Shown: positions 421-7,945 of the stretch, in pieces
Layout: each line of letters starts with the position of its first letter
Numbering within the stretch: position 1 is the first letter of the stretch
IMG/VR virus record: IMGVR_UViG_2684622669_000009
Location: 1-8,380 of that record
DNA from: a virus
Lineage: Duplodnaviria > Heunggongvirae > Uroviricota > Caudoviricetes
Strand: one strand, 5' to 3'
Length of the DNA stretch: 8,380 nt
Notes under the pieces: generated by a model
The model's database searches: none
The model's input: the letters and a program-made list of their open reading frames with translations, nothing else
What the model was told of the DNA's origin: nothing
Made by a program: the position numbers and the translations under genes

Positions 421-903
421 CTATCTGGTCAGGGTGTCGTACTGTTTTTCACAGACTCTTCCGGCTTCGGCTGCCCGGTCAGCATACTCTGCCAGTTGTC
501 TGTTTCTCTCGAGAGATTTGCTGAGCAAGTCGGCAAGCAAAACTCCGGTGTCTGCGGCTGACGCCCCAGCGCCGACAATGGCGTTATACTGCCTGAGCTG
601 CTCACGGATGGCAACGAGCTGTTGCTGCAACCGGCCAGCGCGAGCGGCAGCATCAAGAGCATCATTGCGCGCCTGGTCGATCCTTTGCTGAGCTTCACGT
701 TCATTGGTAGCTTTCTCCTGTTCGTAGTGCTGACGAACTATCTCATCTTCGGCTTTGCGATCTTCCTTCGCCTGCGCATACCCGGCTTCGTACTGACGAC
801 TGCCGTATGCATTCCAGGCTACAACTCCTGATATGACCAGAACAGCAAGCATCGCCATGATAACCAACTGTTTACTGTATGCTTTTGCGAATGCCCAGAT
901 CAT
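421..903 (-). CDS. Rz: Rz-like i-spanin (inner-membrane spanin subunit)
   Basis: 160 aa; N-terminal transmembrane segment (LVIMAMLAVLVISGVVAW) followed by a long charged, Q/A/E/R-rich predicted coiled coil. Its ATG overlaps the endolysin stop as ATGA (900-903), indicating translational coupling; it contains the embedded Rz1 frame. Confidence 0.85.
   Translation of the reverse strand: MIWAFAKAYSKQLVIMAMLAVLVISGVVAWNAYGSRQYEAGYAQAKEDRKAEDEIVRQHYEQEKATNEREAQQRIDQARNDALDAAARAGRLQQQLVAIREQLRQYNAIVGAGASAADTGVLLADLLSKSLERNRQLAEYADRAAEAGRVCEKQYDTLTR
429..704 (-). CDS. Rz1: Rz1-like o-spanin (outer-membrane lipoprotein), embedded out of frame inside Rz
   Basis: 91-aa ORF lying wholly inside the Rz ORF in another frame. 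N-terminus MNVKLSKGSTRR + hydrophobic AMMLLMLPLA + lipobox LAG|C is a typical lipoprotein signal peptide; the mature part is short and proline-rich as in lambda Rz1. AGGAGA Shine-Dalgarno about 9 nt upstream of the ATG at 704. Start could instead be the internal Met at 665 or 662. Confidence 0.75.
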   Translation of the reverse strand: MNVKLSKGSTRRAMMLLMLPLALAGCSNSSLPSVSSSGSITPLSALGRQPQTPEFCLPTCSANLSRETDNWQSMLTGQPKPEESVKNSTTP

Positions 904-1529
904 ACCGCCAGCACCTTACTGGCAGTGATGTACCGCGCGCGTCTGTCGTCGATTCCGTTCCTGCCACCATTGATAATCAGAGTTACACGTACAATATCTC
1001 CGGTATACTTCATGCAGCCTTTACTGGAGAAGAACCACGCCGCGCTACGAGCCGCGTATTCGTCCTGCGCCAGCAGTTCAGGACTCTCCAGCAGGTCAAC
1101 TTTCAGGCCGTTTCCGCAGTCACGATAGTTATTCAAACCGGTAATCTGGATAAGTCCGCGTCCTCGGTAATTCCAGCCATCACCAGGGGCATTGTTCCCC
1201 ATGCGTTTGCTGTACACCAGATTTGCAATCGCGCGCTGGCGCTCTAGTGGCAATGGTGGTTCACCAGCACGGCGACCCAGTGCATTAGCCTGTCCTTGGG
1301 TGAGACGCCCAGCCCGAACGAAGTTAGCCAGTCCGGTGACGCTGTAGTTGAAATTCTCCTGCAACCGGGTGAGGCCACCAGACTCATGCCCGACCTGAGC
1401 AATAAACATTGCTTGATCTTCGGCTTTGCTGATACCAAACTCTTTCATCGCAGAAGTTATATGCGAGAACCAGCGTGCAGCAAGCACCTCGCTAATACCA
1501 GCAGCTAGCTGGAATTGTTTAATCTCCAT
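900..1529 (-). CDS. Phage endolysin, glycoside hydrolase family 19 (chitinase-like lysozyme)
   Basis: 209 aa carrying the motifs I associate with GH19 phage endolysins: AQVGHESGG, PGDGWNYRGRGLIQITGLNNY, SPELLAQ, SAAWFF, INGGRNGIDDRR. Sits between holin-like genes and Rz/Rz1. Confidence 0.88.
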   Translation of the reverse strand: MEIKQFQLAAGISEVLAARWFSHITSAMKEFGISKAEDQAMFIAQVGHESGGLTRLQENFNYSVTGLANFVRAGRLTQGQANALGRRAGEPPLPLERQRAIANLVYSKRMGNNAPGDGWNYRGRGLIQITGLNNYRDCGNGLKVDLLESPELLAQDEYAARSAAWFFSSKGCMKYTGDIVRVTLIINGGRNGIDDRRARYITASKVLAV

Positions 1530-1830
1530 GTTTAAATCTCGTTATTTTGAAAATCTGAACGACGTTACCGCGCGTTTTAATAACCGCAGCAAGCATGACA
1601 GCGTTGATAATGACCTCAGATAAATCCACAGCCATTGGCGTGCGTAACCAGATTGCATAAACAACACGAACTGGAATACTGGCCGCAGCAACAATCAGGA
1701 AATAAGCAATCCACCCACCCCATCTTCGGTGTTGGGATCCGTTACGCTGGAAAGTGACAACGCGAATTGCTATGCCAGTACAAATAACCGCATTGGTGAT
1801 CAGCAAAAAAAGCTCATGAGTTACCATCAT
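1519..1830 (-). CDS. Holin-like small membrane protein (holin or antiholin) of the lysis cassette
   Basis: 103 aa with 2-3 predicted TM helices and a charged C-terminal tail (KTRGNVVQIFKITRFKHGD). GGAG-type Shine-Dalgarno upstream of the ATG at 1830. Overlaps the endolysin start by 11 nt and the upstream membrane-protein gene by 17 nt. Function is from position and topology, not recognised homology. Confidence 0.6.
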   Translation of the reverse strand: MMVTHELFLLITNAVICTGIAIRVVTFQRNGSQHRRWGGWIAYFLIVAAASIPVRVVYAIWLRTPMAVDLSEVIINAVMLAAVIKTRGNVVQIFKITRFKHGD

Positions 1831-2218
1831 CTTTTCTCCCCGGAATTAACTCGCGTGGATTATCTGAACGGTGATAGAGCCATATACCAATACGCACAGC
1901 GACAATTGCTGATACAAATGCACCGGCAGAAAAGACGACTCCTTTTTCGAATGATTCCTGCGTGATTGTTGGAATCAGGCTGGCTATGCCGATAAGAATT
2001 AATGCTGCTGGCTTGTAGAAAAGAAGACCACATAGAAAACTTAGTATCGATAAAAGAACACGACGACGAACAGGATACTCTACCGCTGAGGTAACAAAAA
2101 TTACCGCGCCCGCTAGTGCACCTAAAGCAACTTCTGGCGGCACACCAGCGACCACAGACATTAGCGCGCTCATGCTAAGCCCCTGATTCAGCGACCCTGT
2201 AGTTAATGTGTGCGACAT
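1814..2218 (-). CDS. Holin-like membrane protein (3 predicted TM helices), first gene of the lysis cassette
   Basis: About 134 aa from the ATG at 2216-2218 (GGTGG Shine-Dalgarno 5 nt upstream); the ORF track's start at 2227 is a GTG with no Shine-Dalgarno. Three hydrophobic segments and a charged C-terminus (YHRSDNPRELIPGRKDDGNS). Assigned by position and topology only. Confidence 0.6.
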   Translation of the reverse strand: MSHTLTTGSLNQGLSMSALMSVVAGVPPEVALGALAGAVIFVTSAVEYPVRRRVLLSILSFLCGLLFYKPAALILIGIASLIPTITQESFEKGVVFSAGAFVSAIVAVRIGIWLYHRSDNPRELIPGRKDDGNS

Positions 2219-2317
2219 AGAGACCACCGTTTAATGTGCATAAAGTCACCCCCCTTAGATGATGAGTCCATCATACACAATAAACCATATTGGGTTCAAA
2301 GAATCATAAAAATGCTC

Positions 2318-2377: not shown

Positions 2378-3472
2378 ATGTTCATTACTAACACTGATGT
2401 TTTTACCTTTCTTTTCTTAGCTATATCATTAATAGCGGCTATTTTTGTCAAAAAAATAATCCCATCAACCGTAATAAATGTACATAATGACACAACCTTA
2501 GAAGGTTTAAGAGGCATTGCATGCTTATTTGTATTTATAAATCATGCTTCATATAGCATTCATCACATCGGAATACAAAATTGGCAAATGATGGGTGATT
2601 CACCATATACCGGGAGAATGGGAGCTTTCGGAGTGGAGATATTTTTCTGTTTGACAGGGTACTTGTTTGCAAAAAAGATTCGCAAAGGAGATATAGACTT
2701 GTCATTTTTTGAAAAAAGAATCAGGAGGCTTGCTCCTGCATATATATTTGTATCATTTGTAGTTTTTATATATTTCGTATTTATGAACTATAATGTTATT
2801 CGTGGTTACTACGATATATCGGCTTTGATCCAACAAATTTTCGGATTCGGTTTCTTTGGGAATAGAATATCTGTAAACGGTATGGTGGATACATCATTGA
2901 ATGCTGTTGTGTGGACGCTTCCTTATGAATGGAAGTTTTATGCAATAGTCCCCTTCGTAGCGGCTATTTATAAGCTAAGAAGGCCTATCCCTCTACTTAT
3001 CGCATTTGGAGTAGCGACTGTTTGCATTGACTATTGGTCGAAAATGTTCTTGTGGGGGTTTTTCGTAACCGGATTCATTGCTTCATTCGTTGGTATTTTA
3101 GAAAATAGATATCTTAAGTATATCTCATATTACATAATGCTATTCCTATTTGCATATGCATTTAAGGGATCATTTGATATTCATGGTTTCCAAATGTTTG
3201 TCGTAGTATCTTTATTTTTCATAACATTTATTGCGGCAAGACCTAAGATATTCTCCATAGGAGTATTTGTTTACCTTGGAACTATAAGCTATAGCATTTA
3301 TCTACTACATCAGGTAGTTACAACGGTTTTCATGAAATTAATCTCTGGGGTAATCGATCTACTTACCATAAATATGTATGAATACTTAATGGTCTGCATC
3401 ATACCAATATCACTTACAATTTACTTATCATCTATTAGTTACAATAAAATAGAGAAAAAATTCATCAGATAA
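2378..3472 (+). CDS. Acyltransferase family 3 integral membrane protein; probable O-antigen / surface-polysaccharide O-acetyltransferase (lysogenic conversion gene)
   Basis: 364 aa, hydrophobic throughout (about 10 TM helices), with AT3-type motifs LEGLRGIACLFVFINH, FGVEIFFCLTGYL and SYSIYLLHQ. Markedly AT-rich compared with its neighbours (estimated by eye at roughly 30% GC). Opposite strand to the flanking phage genes. Confidence 0.85.
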   Translation: MFITNTDVFTFLFLAISLIAAIFVKKIIPSTVINVHNDTTLEGLRGIACLFVFINHASYSIHHIGIQNWQMMGDSPYTGRMGAFGVEIFFCLTGYLFAKKIRKGDIDLSFFEKRIRRLAPAYIFVSFVVFIYFVFMNYNVIRGYYDISALIQQIFGFGFFGNRISVNGMVDTSLNAVVWTLPYEWKFYAIVPFVAAIYKLRRPIPLLIAFGVATVCIDYWSKMFLWGFFVTGFIASFVGILENRYLKYISYYIMLFLFAYAFKGSFDIHGFQMFVVVSLFFITFIAARPKIFSIGVFVYLGTISYSIYLLHQVVTTVFMKLISGVIDLLTINMYEYLMVCIIPISLTIYLSSISYNKIEKKFIR

Positions 3473-3519: not shown

Positions 3520-5742
3520 TCAGCCGTTCGAGATTTTACCAGATATCCTAAATCTTAGCGCTCCAGATTTGATGTAATTGTATGTGAGGAAAGTTCTTGT
3601 GCCATCAGATGCCACGGCATAGAACTGAATCTTTGTGAAGTCTGTAGCTCCTGTAGGAATAAATCCAATAACATCGACAGTTCCTGCTGGTAATGCATTC
3701 CCAAGCGCTGTCCTGACCTCTATCTCGCATCCTGCCCCTGGATAAAAACCAAGCCCTCTGGGAAGGGTGATTGTGATATTTCCTGTACCGCCTGTTGTTC
3801 CTGTAACATTTATACTTACATGCAAATCAACATGCTCACCATCCCTCCTTGCAGTATATGTGCCAGTTTGTGTTACAGCTGTAGTATCATCGAAACCGAT
3901 ACTTCCAGTTAAGGCCGCATTAACCTGTAGTTCAGATTTAAATCCGCATATATTATTTCTCCACGGAATCGTTGGTTTATCACCATCCCATGTGATGGGT
4001 TGCGATGAAAAATGAGTTGTTTTATTACCAAGAAATTTTAAATTAAACAAGTTGTTATTTATATCGCCAACAAGATAAGCAGCATAAAAAGGTAGCCCTC
4101 CAGTAACAACCTGTTCATTGTGAGAAGTTACAACAGCATCGTGTATAGTATTGCTGGTTGAGCGAATCACAAACCCATAACCACCATTATCCATCGTTGC
4201 GCCAGAATCTGGATCTAATTTTGCAACGCTATCAGCATATGGTCTATAAAGTGTATGCCCACCAGATATCAATTCAAAACCGATTAACATTTGCCTGTTA
4301 GGATATAAATCATCTGATGTTTTAGGATGTCCCCATGGATGAGGATCTACAAGAGTATTCGATCCGGTACCAGAAATGCGAATGCCTATTGGATAATCTA
4401 TCGTTATAGGGTTTACAAAATGGCTATCACCAGTGCGAATCCACAATCCAACTACCGACTTGCTTTCCCATTTCATAATTCCAAAGCAACTATGCATAAT
4501 TGCGATTTCATAACCTATTGAAGGAATACCACCAATATCTGCCCCGCCTCTTAGCATCCCCCACGTTTCCATCTGACCTACCGTAACACCAGCTATATGC
4601 GTCATCAGAACACCAATTGCATCAACATGTTGGTAATATACGGTTCCCCAGTCAGTATTCTGCGTATGTCGTATGTGAATTCGTGGAATATAGGTACGCT
4701 TATCGCTATATGTGGTCGTTGGTGACATAATGTGATAGACAGCCTTATAGCTATTTCCTGCGGCATCTACTGTTTGGAAATCACCAGTTGGATCTGCCCA
4801 TATAACACCAGTCTGCAATACGCTAAGCCCTGCCAGATGCTTAATTGATGATTTAACCCGATAGACATTTGGCAGCCAAACTGTTTTGTTATTCTCATAA
4901 GCATAGTCATACGCATCCTGAATCATCACAGCCCAGTCAGTTTCTCCTGGATGATTTGCATAGAACTGCTCAGGTGTAACAAACTGCGAACGCGCAAATA
5001 GATCGTTTAAATCTGTTTGCACTGTACCGCTGGACATCGTGCCTATCAAACAACTTCCTGTTGGCTTCGCTAGTTCTATGAGAACATCAGCAGCAGAACC
5101 AGATTCTGGTAGTAGCATGATTGGGTTACCATTATCATCCATGCCTACAATTTTGTTTTTTCTCAACTCAACTGGTGGTAACTGCGGGATCATTTCTGCC
5201 GTGCGTAACGTTCTGCTAAAGAGAAGATCCGTATGCGAAGTGTTTCCAGCGCTAAGTGAGTCAGCATAATTCTTTGTCGCTGCATCCTGAGGGCGAATAG
5301 GGTCTCTTAAGTTTCTAATGTAGTTGTTTAGTGCGTCGTAATAATTAGCCACGAACGACGGCTTTCGCAGAACAAGGCTAAACCAACTACGCACTTGCTG
5401 GATCAGCATCGTCAGCTTATCGAACGCGTCTTCATGCACCTCAGCGAAAAACTTTCCCTGATTGCGCAGATCAGTTTCCTGCGTAACCGGTAGCTCTCGT
5501 GATATAGAAATCTGATAACCGTTAGCCAACGCCTTCGACAGAATTACATTACCGCCGTTATATCCTCCAGCTCCGGTAACTGTATAATCAGTATCAAGAG
5601 TCAGCACAGCAATATTTTCGTTAAGGTCAGAGACCTGAACAACCAAGTCGGATTTTTTGAAAATACGGAAGGTATACGGAAATGATGTCGTAACACCGTT
5701 ACCGGTGTATTCGTTGTGGTCAACTTCGGTTGAGACCGTCAT
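3520..5742 (-). CDS. Tailspike / tail fiber protein with putative polysaccharide depolymerase (beta-helix) receptor-binding domain
   Basis: 740 aa. The N-terminal ~150 aa (YTGNGVTTSFPYTFRIFKKSDLVV...LTLDTDYTV) follow the pattern of the T7 gp17 N-terminal particle-attachment domain. A downstream segment TPEQFYANHPGETDWAVMIQDAYDYAYENNKTVWLPNVYRV matches the signature at the start of pectate-lyase-type beta-helix tailspikes. Gly/Thr/Ser-rich C-terminus. GGAGA Shine-Dalgarno 6 nt before the ATG at 5742. Confidence 0.88.
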   Translation of the reverse strand: MTVSTEVDHNEYTGNGVTTSFPYTFRIFKKSDLVVQVSDLNENIAVLTLDTDYTVTGAGGYNGGNVILSKALANGYQISISRELPVTQETDLRNQGKFFAEVHEDAFDKLTMLIQQVRSWFSLVLRKPSFVANYYDALNNYIRNLRDPIRPQDAATKNYADSLSAGNTSHTDLLFSRTLRTAEMIPQLPPVELRKNKIVGMDDNGNPIMLLPESGSAADVLIELAKPTGSCLIGTMSSGTVQTDLNDLFARSQFVTPEQFYANHPGETDWAVMIQDAYDYAYENNKTVWLPNVYRVKSSIKHLAGLSVLQTGVIWADPTGDFQTVDAAGNSYKAVYHIMSPTTTYSDKRTYIPRIHIRHTQNTDWGTVYYQHVDAIGVLMTHIAGVTVGQMETWGMLRGGADIGGIPSIGYEIAIMHSCFGIMKWESKSVVGLWIRTGDSHFVNPITIDYPIGIRISGTGSNTLVDPHPWGHPKTSDDLYPNRQMLIGFELISGGHTLYRPYADSVAKLDPDSGATMDNGGYGFVIRSTSNTIHDAVVTSHNEQVVTGGLPFYAAYLVGDINNNLFNLKFLGNKTTHFSSQPITWDGDKPTIPWRNNICGFKSELQVNAALTGSIGFDDTTAVTQTGTYTARRDGEHVDLHVSINVTGTTGGTGNITITLPRGLGFYPGAGCEIEVRTALGNALPAGTVDVIGFIPTGATDFTKIQFYAVASDGTRTFLTYNYIKSGALRFRISGKISNG

Positions 5743-5898
5743 GTTAAATCTCCAGATAGTCGCAGCACCCGTTGCGCCGCATATCCGGTTATTCTATTAC
5801 CTGAAAAACCATATATGGATAGGTAACCCATAAATACGAACAGATATTACCTTTCAGGTAATTTGCAAAACGTGCTGGATAGCAAACAAATTATTTGA

Positions 5899-5918
5899 TA
5901 CTGTATATTCATACAGTT
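5899..5918 (+). promoter_or_regulatory. LexA (SOS) box overlapping the putative promoter of the 85-aa gene / Bro-N operon
   Basis: TACTGTATATTCATACAGTT matches the E. coli LexA consensus TACTGTATATATATACAGTA at 17 of 20 positions, with the CTGT-N8-ACAG core intact. It lies 20 nt upstream of the ATG at 5938, with a possible -10 TATATT (5904-5909) inside the box. Confidence 0.6.
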
Positions 5919-5937
5919 ATTGCATGGAGAAGATAAG

Positions 5938-6195
5938 ATGCAGCAGTATCACTATCCACTGGAAGACGGATTTACCGAAAGGATTCACACGCCGGGAGGC
6001 GTCAGGTCACTGGTGGAGGGATCGCACTTGATGAAATTACTCCGGGATCTCGATAAGGATGGATTTAATGTCGATGGCCCACTTACCGAACTGACTGCAC
6101 TGATTAACTACGTCACCAGCTCACAGATGTCTATGCAGGAGCTGCAAACACATCTCGACTATTGTGCCGAACAATTACGAAAGCAAACCAGATAA
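5938..6195 (+). CDS. Small protein (85 aa) paralogous to the C-terminal domain of the downstream Bro-N antirepressor; candidate SOS-induced antirepressor or modulator
   Basis: ATG at 5938 preceded by GGAGAAG. Aligns over its whole length with the last ~78 residues of the Bro-N protein (shared YxxPLxxG[FY]xxxIH[ST]PxGV...SxLMxLL...DGxxVxG...ELT...QTHxxY). The ORF-track start at 5920 is a TTG; the ATG with a Shine-Dalgarno is preferred. Confidence 0.7.
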   Translation: MQQYHYPLEDGFTERIHTPGGVRSLVEGSHLMKLLRDLDKDGFNVDGPLTELTALINYVTSSQMSMQELQTHLDYCAEQLRKQTR

Positions 6196-6333
6196 GGTTT
6201 GCAATTACCAAGCGGAGTGCTTATATTTACCTTTGCGGTAAATTTACATCGCACTCCTCTTGTGCCATAGTGATCAGGCACTGGCAAAATCCAGTGCCGG
6301 GATTGGCGTCCCGGATTACTAAAAGGCGCATTC

Positions 6334-6353
6334 ACCGCGCAAGCGGTTTTTTT
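6334..6353 (+). terminator. Candidate intrinsic terminator / attenuator between the 85-aa gene and the Bro-N gene
   Basis: 5-bp stem accgc / gcggt with a GCAA tetraloop, followed by a run of 7 T (6347-6353). The short stem suggests partial termination. Confidence 0.45.
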
Positions 6354-6510
6354 ATGCGTATAGCACGGTCACATTCGTATTATGGTGGGCTGTGTGGGGG
6401 CACCGAAAGGTGCGCCGGGTCCTTTTAGCCGGTTACGCCAACCCTGCACAGTTCACCACCAACCGATTGGCGTCGGTAGTGGTGATTAACCAGACTAAAA
6501 GGTAACCACT

Positions 6511-7197
6511 ATGACTGCTAACGTAACCCCATCTGTTTTTCATTTTGAATCAGAAGCAACCATTCGAGCCATTGTTATTGATGGAAATCCTTGGTTTGTT
6601 GCCAAAGACGTTATTAAAGCTCTTCAACTGACAAACCCCACTATGTCAATAAAATCTCTTGATGATGATGAAAGGGCTAAATTTAACTTAGGCCGTCAAG
6701 GCGAAACCAATATTATCAACGAGTCAGGCCTCTACACACTGATCCTCCGCTGCCGCGATGCGGTGACACCAGGCACTATCCCCTACCGCTTTCGTAAATG
6801 GGTTACAGGTGAGGTTCTTCCTCAGATCCGCCGCACCGGAAGTTACATTAAAAACTCGCTCCCGCAGGAAGAACGCATAAAGATGGTTGCCGACCAGGTA
6901 GCCAACGCCACAGCATCAGCAGTGATGCAGGCAATGAAGATAGAGAACAAAACCTACAGCGCCCCACTGAAGCCCGGCTACCGCAGTCTGATTCATTCTC
7001 CGTCTGGTGTTCTCGGCTTGACGGAGAACTCACTGCTGATGAATCTGCTGAACCGGTTACAGGAAGACGGGCACGACGTATCGGGCGCGGCGGCGGAGCT
7101 GACCACCATGTTCTGCTACATCGTCGGTGTGAGCAAATGCCTGCGTGATATCCAGACACACGCGGAGTACATCAACGACAAAGCAGGGTTCTTCTGA
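6511..7197 (+). CDS. Bro-N domain phage antirepressor-like protein
   Basis: 228 aa. N-terminal ~110 aa fit the Bro-N pattern (FHFESEATIRAIVIDGNPWFVAKDVIKALQL...ESGLYTLILRCRD). The C-terminal ~78 aa are paralogous to the upstream 85-aa protein. Confidence 0.85.
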   Translation: MTANVTPSVFHFESEATIRAIVIDGNPWFVAKDVIKALQLTNPTMSIKSLDDDERAKFNLGRQGETNIINESGLYTLILRCRDAVTPGTIPYRFRKWVTGEVLPQIRRTGSYIKNSLPQEERIKMVADQVANATASAVMQAMKIENKTYSAPLKPGYRSLIHSPSGVLGLTENSLLMNLLNRLQEDGHDVSGAAAELTTMFCYIVGVSKCLRDIQTHAEYINDKAGFF

Positions 7198-7223: not shown

Positions 7224-7313
7224 AAATAATTCTGTACAGATTGCAGGTGAATAGCTTACTATTACCTCACGGGTGATCCATAGCGATTAGGCACCGATAC
7301 AGGAGGAGCCCAC

Positions 7314-7405: not shown

Positions 7406-7945
7406 GTGTTAAGTGAAGAAATGCAATTTGCCATGGCTGTAGCTCAAATCGTAAGTGCAGTCGCGGTTTCGCTTGGCTTGTTCATAGCTATCGCTACTAT
7501 TATTTATAATGTAAATACAGCGAGAAAAGTACACACTTCAGTATTCCTTGGTGAAAGCAGGTTTGATGTAGATTATAAGAAAGGCCTATCTACTATGCGC
7601 CGCATTCACGAATCGAACAAATCATTCCGCTCTTATATGTATCCAAGCAATGGGCAGGCTGATCTTACGGATGAAGAAAAGACAGAGAAGAGAGAAATAA
7701 TTTACTGTCTAGGTTTCTACGAACGCATGGCTGTGAGCGTGAAGCGGAAAACTTATGATGAGACCATGATTAAGGAAGTATTTTACAGCTCCGTTGTAAA
7801 TAACTATCAGATTGCGCTACCTCTTATACAAGCCATTAGAGAAAAAGAAAACATAAACACATATTTTAAAGAATATGAATGGTTGGCCACACGATGGAAG
7901 GATTGCCCATTGAAGGATAAATCCCCGTGGTACAAGTTTTGGTAA
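7406..7945 (+). CDS. Membrane-anchored protein of unknown function (179 aa); candidate superinfection-exclusion / abortive-infection effector
   Basis: GTG start at 7406 with GGAGA 6 nt upstream (alternative ATG at 7421). One N-terminal TM helix (FAMAVAQIVSAVAVSLGLFIAIATIIYNV) then a ~140-aa charged soluble domain rich in K/E/Y. Lower GC than its neighbours (estimated by eye at roughly 40%). Followed directly by a strong terminator. I recognise no family for it. Confidence 0.7.
   Translation: MLSEEMQFAMAVAQIVSAVAVSLGLFIAIATIIYNVNTARKVHTSVFLGESRFDVDYKKGLSTMRRIHESNKSFRSYMYPSNGQADLTDEEKTEKREIIYCLGFYERMAVSVKRKTYDETMIKEVFYSSVVNNYQIALPLIQAIREKENINTYFKEYEWLATRWKDCPLKDKSPWYKFW

Follow-up and report, generated by a model that had tools for sequence, protein, structure and literature searches.

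The DNA analysed here (the window, meaning the whole stretch of 8,380 nucleotides) is part of a phiV10/epsilon15-like prophage of the genus Uetakevirus, the relatives of which number at least 451 in IMG/VR. It carries lysis genes, an acyltransferase-3 gene, a tailspike gene, a gene for an 85-aa protein, a Bro-N gene with its associated RNA elements and a DUF4760 gene, and a candidate LexA (SOS) box lies between the divergent tailspike and 85-aa genes (Table 1). Positions 1-237 belong to the terminal part of an IS200/IS605-family element and are 96% identical to the tnpA regions of many E. coli genomes; the element has been inserted by the prophage end, just beyond an Rz-like gene, and in E. 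coli genomes the matches to the prophage start only at 293. This element shows a past insertion, and the prophage might be defective. A weak Rfam Trp-leader candidate at 221-337 (32.7 bits, below the gathering score of 41), which overlaps the end (237) of the stretch matching the IS200/IS605 element, was dismissed.

Table 1. Features of the window considered in this work, in order of position
Feature	Position	Strand	Evidence or remarks
Lysis genes	421-2227	-	
Acyl_transf_3 gene	2378-3472	+	33% G+C
Tailspike gene	3520-5742	-	
Rep-operator-like palindrome TTACC-N5-GGTAA	5847-5861	.	Exact match; tailspike/ant divergent region, upstream of the ant promoter
Predicted ant promoter	5876-5904	+	-35 TGGATA 5876-5881, 17-nt spacer, extended -10 TG 5896-5897 and TACTGT 5899-5904
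Candidate LexA (SOS) box TACTGTATATTCATACAGTT	5899-5918	.	Consensus match, PWM score, SPC32H alignment, conservation in orthologous loci
Shine-Dalgarno GGAG of ant	5926-5929	+	Invariant in the 11-phage alignment; 8 nt before ATG 5938
ant, 85-aa antirepressor, SPC32H Ant ortholog by sequence	5938-6195	+	PDB 5D50_E match, 85% identity, synteny
Promoter-like TTGCAA-17-TATATT (6199-6227) and abutting Rep-operator-like palindrome (6227-6241)	6199-6241	+	Promoter scan, motif search
Second exact Rep-operator-like palindrome TTACC-N5-GGTAA	6227-6241		Abuts the promoter-like site before the IsrK/C4/Bro-N unit
IsrK-like RNA with C4 targets a1 (6303-6309) and b1 (6319-6326) and intrinsic terminator (6334-6353)	6278-6353	+	Rfam, terminator scan, complementarity
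C4-type antisense RNA with loops b' CCTTTTAG (6421-6428) and a' ACGCCAA (6435-6441)	6378-6463	+	Rfam, fold, complementarity
C4 targets a2 (6467-6473) and b2 (6495-6502)	6467-6502	+	Complementarity, covariation
Bro-N protein with Ant-like C-terminal domain (residues 147-223)	6511-7197	+	Pfam, PDB match, PHROG
DUF4760 gene	7406-7945	+	39% G+C

When the 85-aa protein was compared with the PDB sequences (phmmer), a single one was matched, chain E of entry 5D50 ('Anti-repressor protein'; E 6e-46, residues 2-84), which is the Ant protein of Salmonella phage SPC32H and is 85% identical to it. In the GenBank record of SPC32H, the gene at the orthologous position, flanked by the tailspike and virion genes, bears the annotation 'ant: anti-repressor protein'. 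The window protein has both the small size of this type of Ant (about 86 aa) and homology to the SPC32H protein. No Pfam, NCBIfam or PADLOC family matched Ant, its PHROG family is one of 'unknown function', and both RefSeq E. coli genomes and the majority of phage records list the gene as a 'hypothetical protein'. A tblastn search of 50,697 phage records revealed Ant-like sequences only in 35 Uetakevirus-like GenBank records, often two per genome. Judged by its sequence, the 85-aa gene is the E. coli-type ortholog of the crystallised and functionally characterised antirepressor Ant of SPC32H, and the practical value of this result is in annotation, as it gives an identity to a 'hypothetical protein'.

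Directly upstream of ant, the plus strand reads TACTGTATATTCATACAGTT, which is identical to the gammaproteobacterial LexA consensus TACTGTATATATATACAGTA, our reference for mismatch counts, at 17 of 20 positions (3 mismatches). An exact CTGT-N8-ACAG occurs only once in the 8380-base window, at 5899-5918, and this is also the sole window site with three or fewer mismatches to the 20-mer consensus; not one of 200 dinucleotide-preserving shuffles contained any. The degree of match and the half-site geometry claimed in the sequence-only reading are therefore borne out, as is a position immediately in front of the gene, although the gap to the ATG at 5938 is 19 nt instead of the 20 nt given there. 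Scoring with a LexA position weight matrix (PWM) had also been proposed in that reading. We used a symmetrised matrix compiled from 26 known SOS boxes of E. coli (Lewis 1994; Fernandez de Henestrosa 2000), and TACTGTATATTCATACAGTT reached 27.0 bits, exceeding 25 of these 26 boxes (scored leave-one-out), while the runner-up 20-mer in the window scored 9.9 and the best of 300 shuffles 20.3. The site thus combines CTGT-N8-ACAG, an AT-rich spacer and a PWM score within the range of validated boxes, as gammaproteobacterial SOS boxes do.

The tailspike-ant intergenic region of the window was aligned with those of ten relatives (phiV10, SPC32H, SPC32N, epsilon15, Tyrion, BUCT554, and four Klebsiella phages), and the box of the window coincides in every column with that of SPC32H, TACTGTATGTTTATACAGTG. 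Within the same region SPC32H and its clear-plaque sibling SPC32N differ by one base, which turns ACAG into AAAG in the right half-site, so that the CAG half-site holds the difference of SPC32N in the aligned region. A change of one base in the LexA site is said to make Ant expression constitutive in SPC32N. Among GenBank phages, five GTDB genomes, and 80 IMG/VR contigs, 66 orthologous ant genes had enough upstream sequence, and 64 of these also have a LexA box that lies 17-20 nt upstream of the ATG. The scan of GTDB genomes with the Ant alignment gave 5 loci and that of IMG/VR gave 80 near-identical loci, which are informative for box variation and not for deep divergence. Among the relatives CTGT and ACAG are kept with N8 spacers as different as ATATTCAT, ATAAATAT, ATATTTAT, ATGTTTAT, ATAAGCAT, ACATATAT, ACATAAAT, and ATAAACAT, and a left half-site ATGT is found only in the Klebsiella/Superficieibacter clade. 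Constrained half-sites around a free spacer are the pattern predicted by selection for LexA binding. The two exceptions are devoid of the left half of the box. In contig L054 (23-54) the end of the contig consists of Nextera adapter, AGATGTGTATAAGAGACAG, joined directly to the box, which is an assembly artefact, and in contig L021 (2456-2480) unrelated sequence is joined inside the left half-site of the box, a breakpoint that could represent a rearrangement making ant LexA-independent.

The same 11-phage alignment contains invariant columns, TGGA(T/A)A (5876-5881) followed after 17 nt by TG-n-TA-n-TGT (5896-5904), which can be read as a promoter with an extended -10 element whose putative -10 hexamer, TACTGT, would be the left LexA half-site itself. 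A generic sigma-70 scan called no promoter over the LexA box, with the hexamers matching at 8 of 12 positions, so the assignment of the ant promoter is based on the conserved columns. The overlap of box and -10 element claimed in the sequence-only reading is plausible from the conserved TGGATA-17-TGnTACTGT, but the generic scan lends it no call. TATATT at 5904-5909 is an alternative -10 that is not conserved among the relatives. Transcription is predicted to start at about 5911, within the LexA box, and with either choice of -10 LexA would occlude both the -10 and the start region of ant. In SPC32H, the LexA site reportedly overlaps the ant promoter.

The repressor against which Ant would act is represented here by relatives only, as rep lies outside the 8.4-kb window. 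SPC32H Rep is chain A of PDB 5D50, the phiV10 homolog (phiV10p40) is 42% identical to it, and a further homolog is present in an E. coli prophage next to guaA. Both SPC32H Rep and its phiV10 homolog have HTH domains and lack a Peptidase_S24 domain, a composition consistent with a non-cleavable repressor. We have also found a palindrome, TTACC-N5-GGTAA, which has two exact copies in the window (Table 1) and one-mismatch copies at 2080-2094, 2327-2341, and 7262-7276 (5 observed versus 0.28 expected; none of 200 shuffles reached 5). The copies lie in the intergenic control regions of tailspike/ant, IsrK/C4/Bro-N and lysis/acyltransferase and upstream of the DUF4760 gene. The one at 5847 is kept in all 11 aligned phages and is annotated in epsilon15 as 'protein_bind repressor / lysogeny'. 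In SPC32H the palindromes cluster around rep, with three just downstream of it, another two between rep and the cro-like gene and a further pair beyond the replication gene, and in phiV10 they are likewise clustered around rep. Because of this clustering in both phages and of the epsilon15 annotation, TTACC-N5-GGTAA is most likely the Rep operator. The 5847 copy, some 55 bp upstream of the LexA box, could control the divergent tailspike promoter or co-control ant. As regards the copy at 6227-6241, a palindrome is located about 35 nt after ant in four relatives too (L005, L007, L008, and L009).

Downstream of ant lies a Bro-N gene preceded by RNA elements of the IsrK and C4 types, which together form a complete riboregulatory module at 6265-6510. 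The Rfam scores were 77.9 bits for isrK (gathering score 50), 77.7 bits for C4 (gathering score 45) and 45 bits for c4-a1b1, the last against a gathering score of 46.7. Loop a' of the C4 RNA is complementary to TTGGCGT at 6303, in the IsrK region, and at 6467, before Bro-N, and loop b' is complementary to CTAAAAGG at 6319, in the IsrK region, and at 6495; this last target, b2, spans the ribosome-binding site of Bro-N, with its end 8 nt ahead of the ATG. In nine relatives the loop and both sets of targets covary (AGACCAA/TTGGTCT, GTCTCAA/TTGAGAC, CCTTTGTAG/CTACAAAGG, and CCACTTAG/CTAAGTGG), which suggests that several immunity specificities exist. The Bro-N domain is recognised by Pfam (E 5e-20) and the PHROG matches of the protein are anti-repressor families, while no PADLOC or NCBIfam match was obtained for it. 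Its C-terminus matches 5D50_E (E 1.9e-13) and is 35% identical to the neighbouring 85-aa Ant, so the phage in the window appears to encode two Ant-type domains under different controls. As SPC32H, epsilon15, and BUCT554 have ant and are devoid of the whole IsrK/C4/Bro-N module, the module is an accessory insertion.

An a1/b1-c4-a2/b2 arrangement has reportedly been described for the immI loci (c4 antisense RNA, icd, ant) of phages P1 and P7 (Citron & Schuster 1990), in which c4 regulates ant. The Bro-N unit resembles these loci and the isrK-(STnc1160)-anrP locus of Gifsy-1 in having a C4-family RNA flanked by a1/b1 and a2/b2, with loops complementary to targets repeated upstream and at the antirepressor ribosome-binding site, the latter covered by b2. 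An upstream IsrK-family RNA with its own terminator and a repressor-operator-like site at the promoter are common features as well. However, the Bro-N unit has no ORF like icd or orf45 coupled to Bro-N, differing in this from the isrK-orf45-anrP locus of Gifsy-1 (Hershko-Shalev et al. 2016, PMC4825925). It has only a 24-codon ORF (MRIARSHSYYGGLCGGTERCAGSF) at 6355-6429, which starts immediately downstream of the IsrK terminator, in an orf45-like position, shares sequence with the 5' half of the C4 RNA and ends 81 nt before the Bro-N ATG, making translational coupling unlikely. The Bro-N unit is also set apart from P1 immI and Gifsy-1 by the SPC32H-Ant-like C-terminal domain of its protein and by its location directly downstream of an ant gene predicted to be under LexA control. 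Most probably, the Bro-N protein is an anti-immunity antirepressor of the P1 immI kind, gated by an antisense RNA.

It could be argued that the LexA-like palindrome is just a chance or vestigial piece of AT-rich promoter sequence without LexA regulation, as the intergenic DNA around it is indeed AT-rich, or that it serves the tailspike gene, which shares this divergent control region and has its start codon at 5742 on the minus strand. Chance is contradicted by the shuffles (0 of 200 with such a site), by a PWM score that equals those of the strongest SOS boxes, and by half-sites that stay conserved across genera although the spacer drifts. Regarding the tailspike, the box keeps its fixed distance of 17-20 nt to the ant ATG and is 157 nt away from the tailspike start, and the best promoter-like site for that gene is elsewhere (about 5791-5819), as a counterpart of TTCATA-17-TAGAAT in SPC32H. 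We have rejected both versions, which together seem to us hardly credible, and consider that, with high probability, the site serves as LexA operator for the ant promoter of this phiV10/epsilon15-like (Uetakevirus) prophage.

The identity of the gene that this operator controls deserves separate consideration, because the sequence-only reading attributed induction to the 85-aa protein, the Bro-N protein or both. Bro-N proteins are widely annotated as antirepressors and the Bro-N gene lies downstream of the box on the same strand, so one might suppose that LexA-dependent induction works mainly through Bro-N, with the 85-aa protein as an accessory. However, the box and Bro-N are separated by the strong intrinsic terminator at 6334-6353 and by a C4 RNA directed against the Bro-N ribosome-binding site, there is no LexA-like site before Bro-N (no other window site exceeds the PWM score of 9.9), and the SPC32H and epsilon15 loci keep the LexA box and ant without a Bro-N gene. 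We have therefore rejected Bro-N as a direct LexA target, and its being the main inducer appears very improbable. With its own promoter-like site, operator-like palindrome, terminator and C4 RNA, the Bro-N gene is a separate unit and not simply LexA-driven. The 85-aa half of the earlier attribution is the one that stands, and the data support the 85-aa protein, rather than the Bro-N protein, as the probable LexA-controlled antirepressor.

A less direct connection between both genes can also be envisaged. In the E. coli/Enterobacter/Klebsiella branch ant would be physically, and perhaps transcriptionally, coupled to the IsrK/C4 module that gates the Bro-N/Ant-like antirepressor: the LexA-controlled ant transcript would read into a1/b1, and this decoy RNA would titrate C4 and unlock Bro-N/Ant-like translation in a second, amplifying tier of antirepression. 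Downstream of the ant stop (6195), no canonical intrinsic terminator was found before that of IsrK, the interval having only a structured hairpin without a U-tract; the C4 loops are complementary to a1/b1 as well as to a2/b2, with b2 on the Bro-N ribosome-binding site; and the C-terminus of the Bro-N protein is homologous to Ant, Ant-like domains being restricted to these phages among the GenBank phage records. There is also a precedent in Gifsy-1 (PMC4825925), where the short form of IsrK switches on translation of anrP, an antirepressor-like gene lying downstream, and where IsrK has a part in prophage induction. Against this, the module is equipped with a promoter-like site and an operator of its own, and the hairpin at 6209-6265 (z-score -3.05), which contains the operator palindrome, could stop or pause transcription. 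Moreover, ant is present without the module in SPC32H, epsilon15, and BUCT554. LexA-controlled induction by Ant is reported to occur in SPC32H, which means that the LexA/Ant switch can do without the module. We offer read-through from ant only tentatively and regard it as rather unlikely; if it were true, the LexA damage signal and the C4 RNA immunity-specificity system would be joined in one induction/anti-immunity circuit against the same Rep family.

For the direct control of ant by LexA, the following sequence of events can be proposed. In an undamaged lysogen, host LexA bound at 5899-5918 would cover the -10 and the start site and keep ant off. Upon DNA damage RecA would be activated, LexA would cleave itself and ant would be transcribed. 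Ant would then bind the HTH repressor Rep of the prophage, which is predicted to have no self-cleaving peptidase domain, and strip it from the TTACC-N5-GGTAA operators, and the removal of Rep would allow the prophage to enter lytic growth. Nothing in the window speaks against this model. For this E. coli-type phage we infer LexA binding, SOS induction, the Ant-Rep interaction and the exact promoter from the work on SPC32H. In that phage, Rep reportedly remains uncleaved during the SOS response and is inactivated by the small Ant. The regulatory logic put forward in the sequence-only reading (a LexA-repressed antirepressor, a non-cleavable repressor and SOS induction) is supported by the 85% identity of Ant, the SPC32H annotation and the aligned box.

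The SPC32H Ant/Rep system (Kim & Ryu 2013, J Virol 87:11775; Kim et al. 2016, PNAS 113:E2480; PDB 5D50, 5D4Z) belongs to the same genus, Uetakevirus, with ant likewise between tailspike and virion genes. The window shares with it the Ant homology, a LexA box at the ant promoter (with a predicted -10 overlap), 19 nt before the ATG, a Rep-operator-like palindrome upstream and a Uetakevirus context in which ant is divergent from the tailspike gene. A Rep like that of SPC32H, without an S24 peptidase domain, is found in relatives of the window, the repressor of this prophage itself being encoded outside the sequence. The differences are that the host of SPC32H is Salmonella while the window phage is of E. 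coli type, that the N8 spacer of the box is ATATTCAT in the window and ATGTTTAT in SPC32H, and that the IsrK/C4/Bro-N-Ant-like module and the DUF4760 gene, both absent from SPC32H, are inserted after ant in the window. In a passage of PMC7380047 Kim & Ryu 2013 is cited for LexA-controlled Ant, and a passage of PMC9638917 describes that an Ant tetramer breaks the Rep tetramer. The SOS-triggered LexA/Ant switch is thus already known for the ortholog in the same phage genus, and no new principle is involved here. Even closer relatives are phiV10 (PhiV10p24), TL-2011b, ZX5, and HEMP4, whose Ant proteins are 95-98% identical to that of the window and which have the same intergenic region and position of the LexA box; in phiV10 and other E. 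coli Uetakevirus prophages the IsrK/C4/Bro-N module follows downstream, as in the window, and ant is annotated only as 'hypothetical protein'.

Coliphage 186, with its protein Tum, is reportedly another case of this kind (Shearwin 1998). The logic that 186 Tum and GfoA, GftA, and GfhA of Gifsy-1/2/3 share with the window combines a repressor that is not cleaved with a small antirepressor whose gene is located outside the immunity region and has a LexA box at its promoter. The Gifsy antirepressors GfoA/GftA/GfhA are under direct LexA control (Lemire et al. 2011, PMC3121763). These phages are of other types, P2-like Myoviridae or lambdoid Siphoviridae, unlike the Uetakevirus of the window, and the restriction of tblastn matches to Uetakevirus-like phages argues against a close homology of Ant to Tum or GfoA. 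Accordingly, the likeness to 186 and Gifsy invoked in the sequence-only reading holds for the regulatory logic, whereas the true relative, SPC32H Ant, was not named there. For a widespread group of E. coli prophages these results imply induction through LexA-controlled antirepression and not through repressor cleavage, and some members of the group carry O-antigen-modifying genes, such as phiV10 in O157:H7.

Concerning the rest of the window, the acyltransferase-3 gene resembles an O-antigen acetylase moron like oac of phiV10, and the N-terminus of the tailspike is of epsilon15 type. Compared with the complete E. coli genomes searched, both the tailspike and the acyltransferase are different in every case, and no single match there covered at least 80% of the window. 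As the best coverage there was only 55-61%, the acyltransferase/tailspike region is probably a rare receptor-specificity cassette. The DUF4760 gene may be an accessory or moron gene; its protein had no PADLOC or NCBIfam match and falls in a PHROG family of unknown function. This gene is located after the Bro-N gene and has a Rep-operator-like site in front of it.
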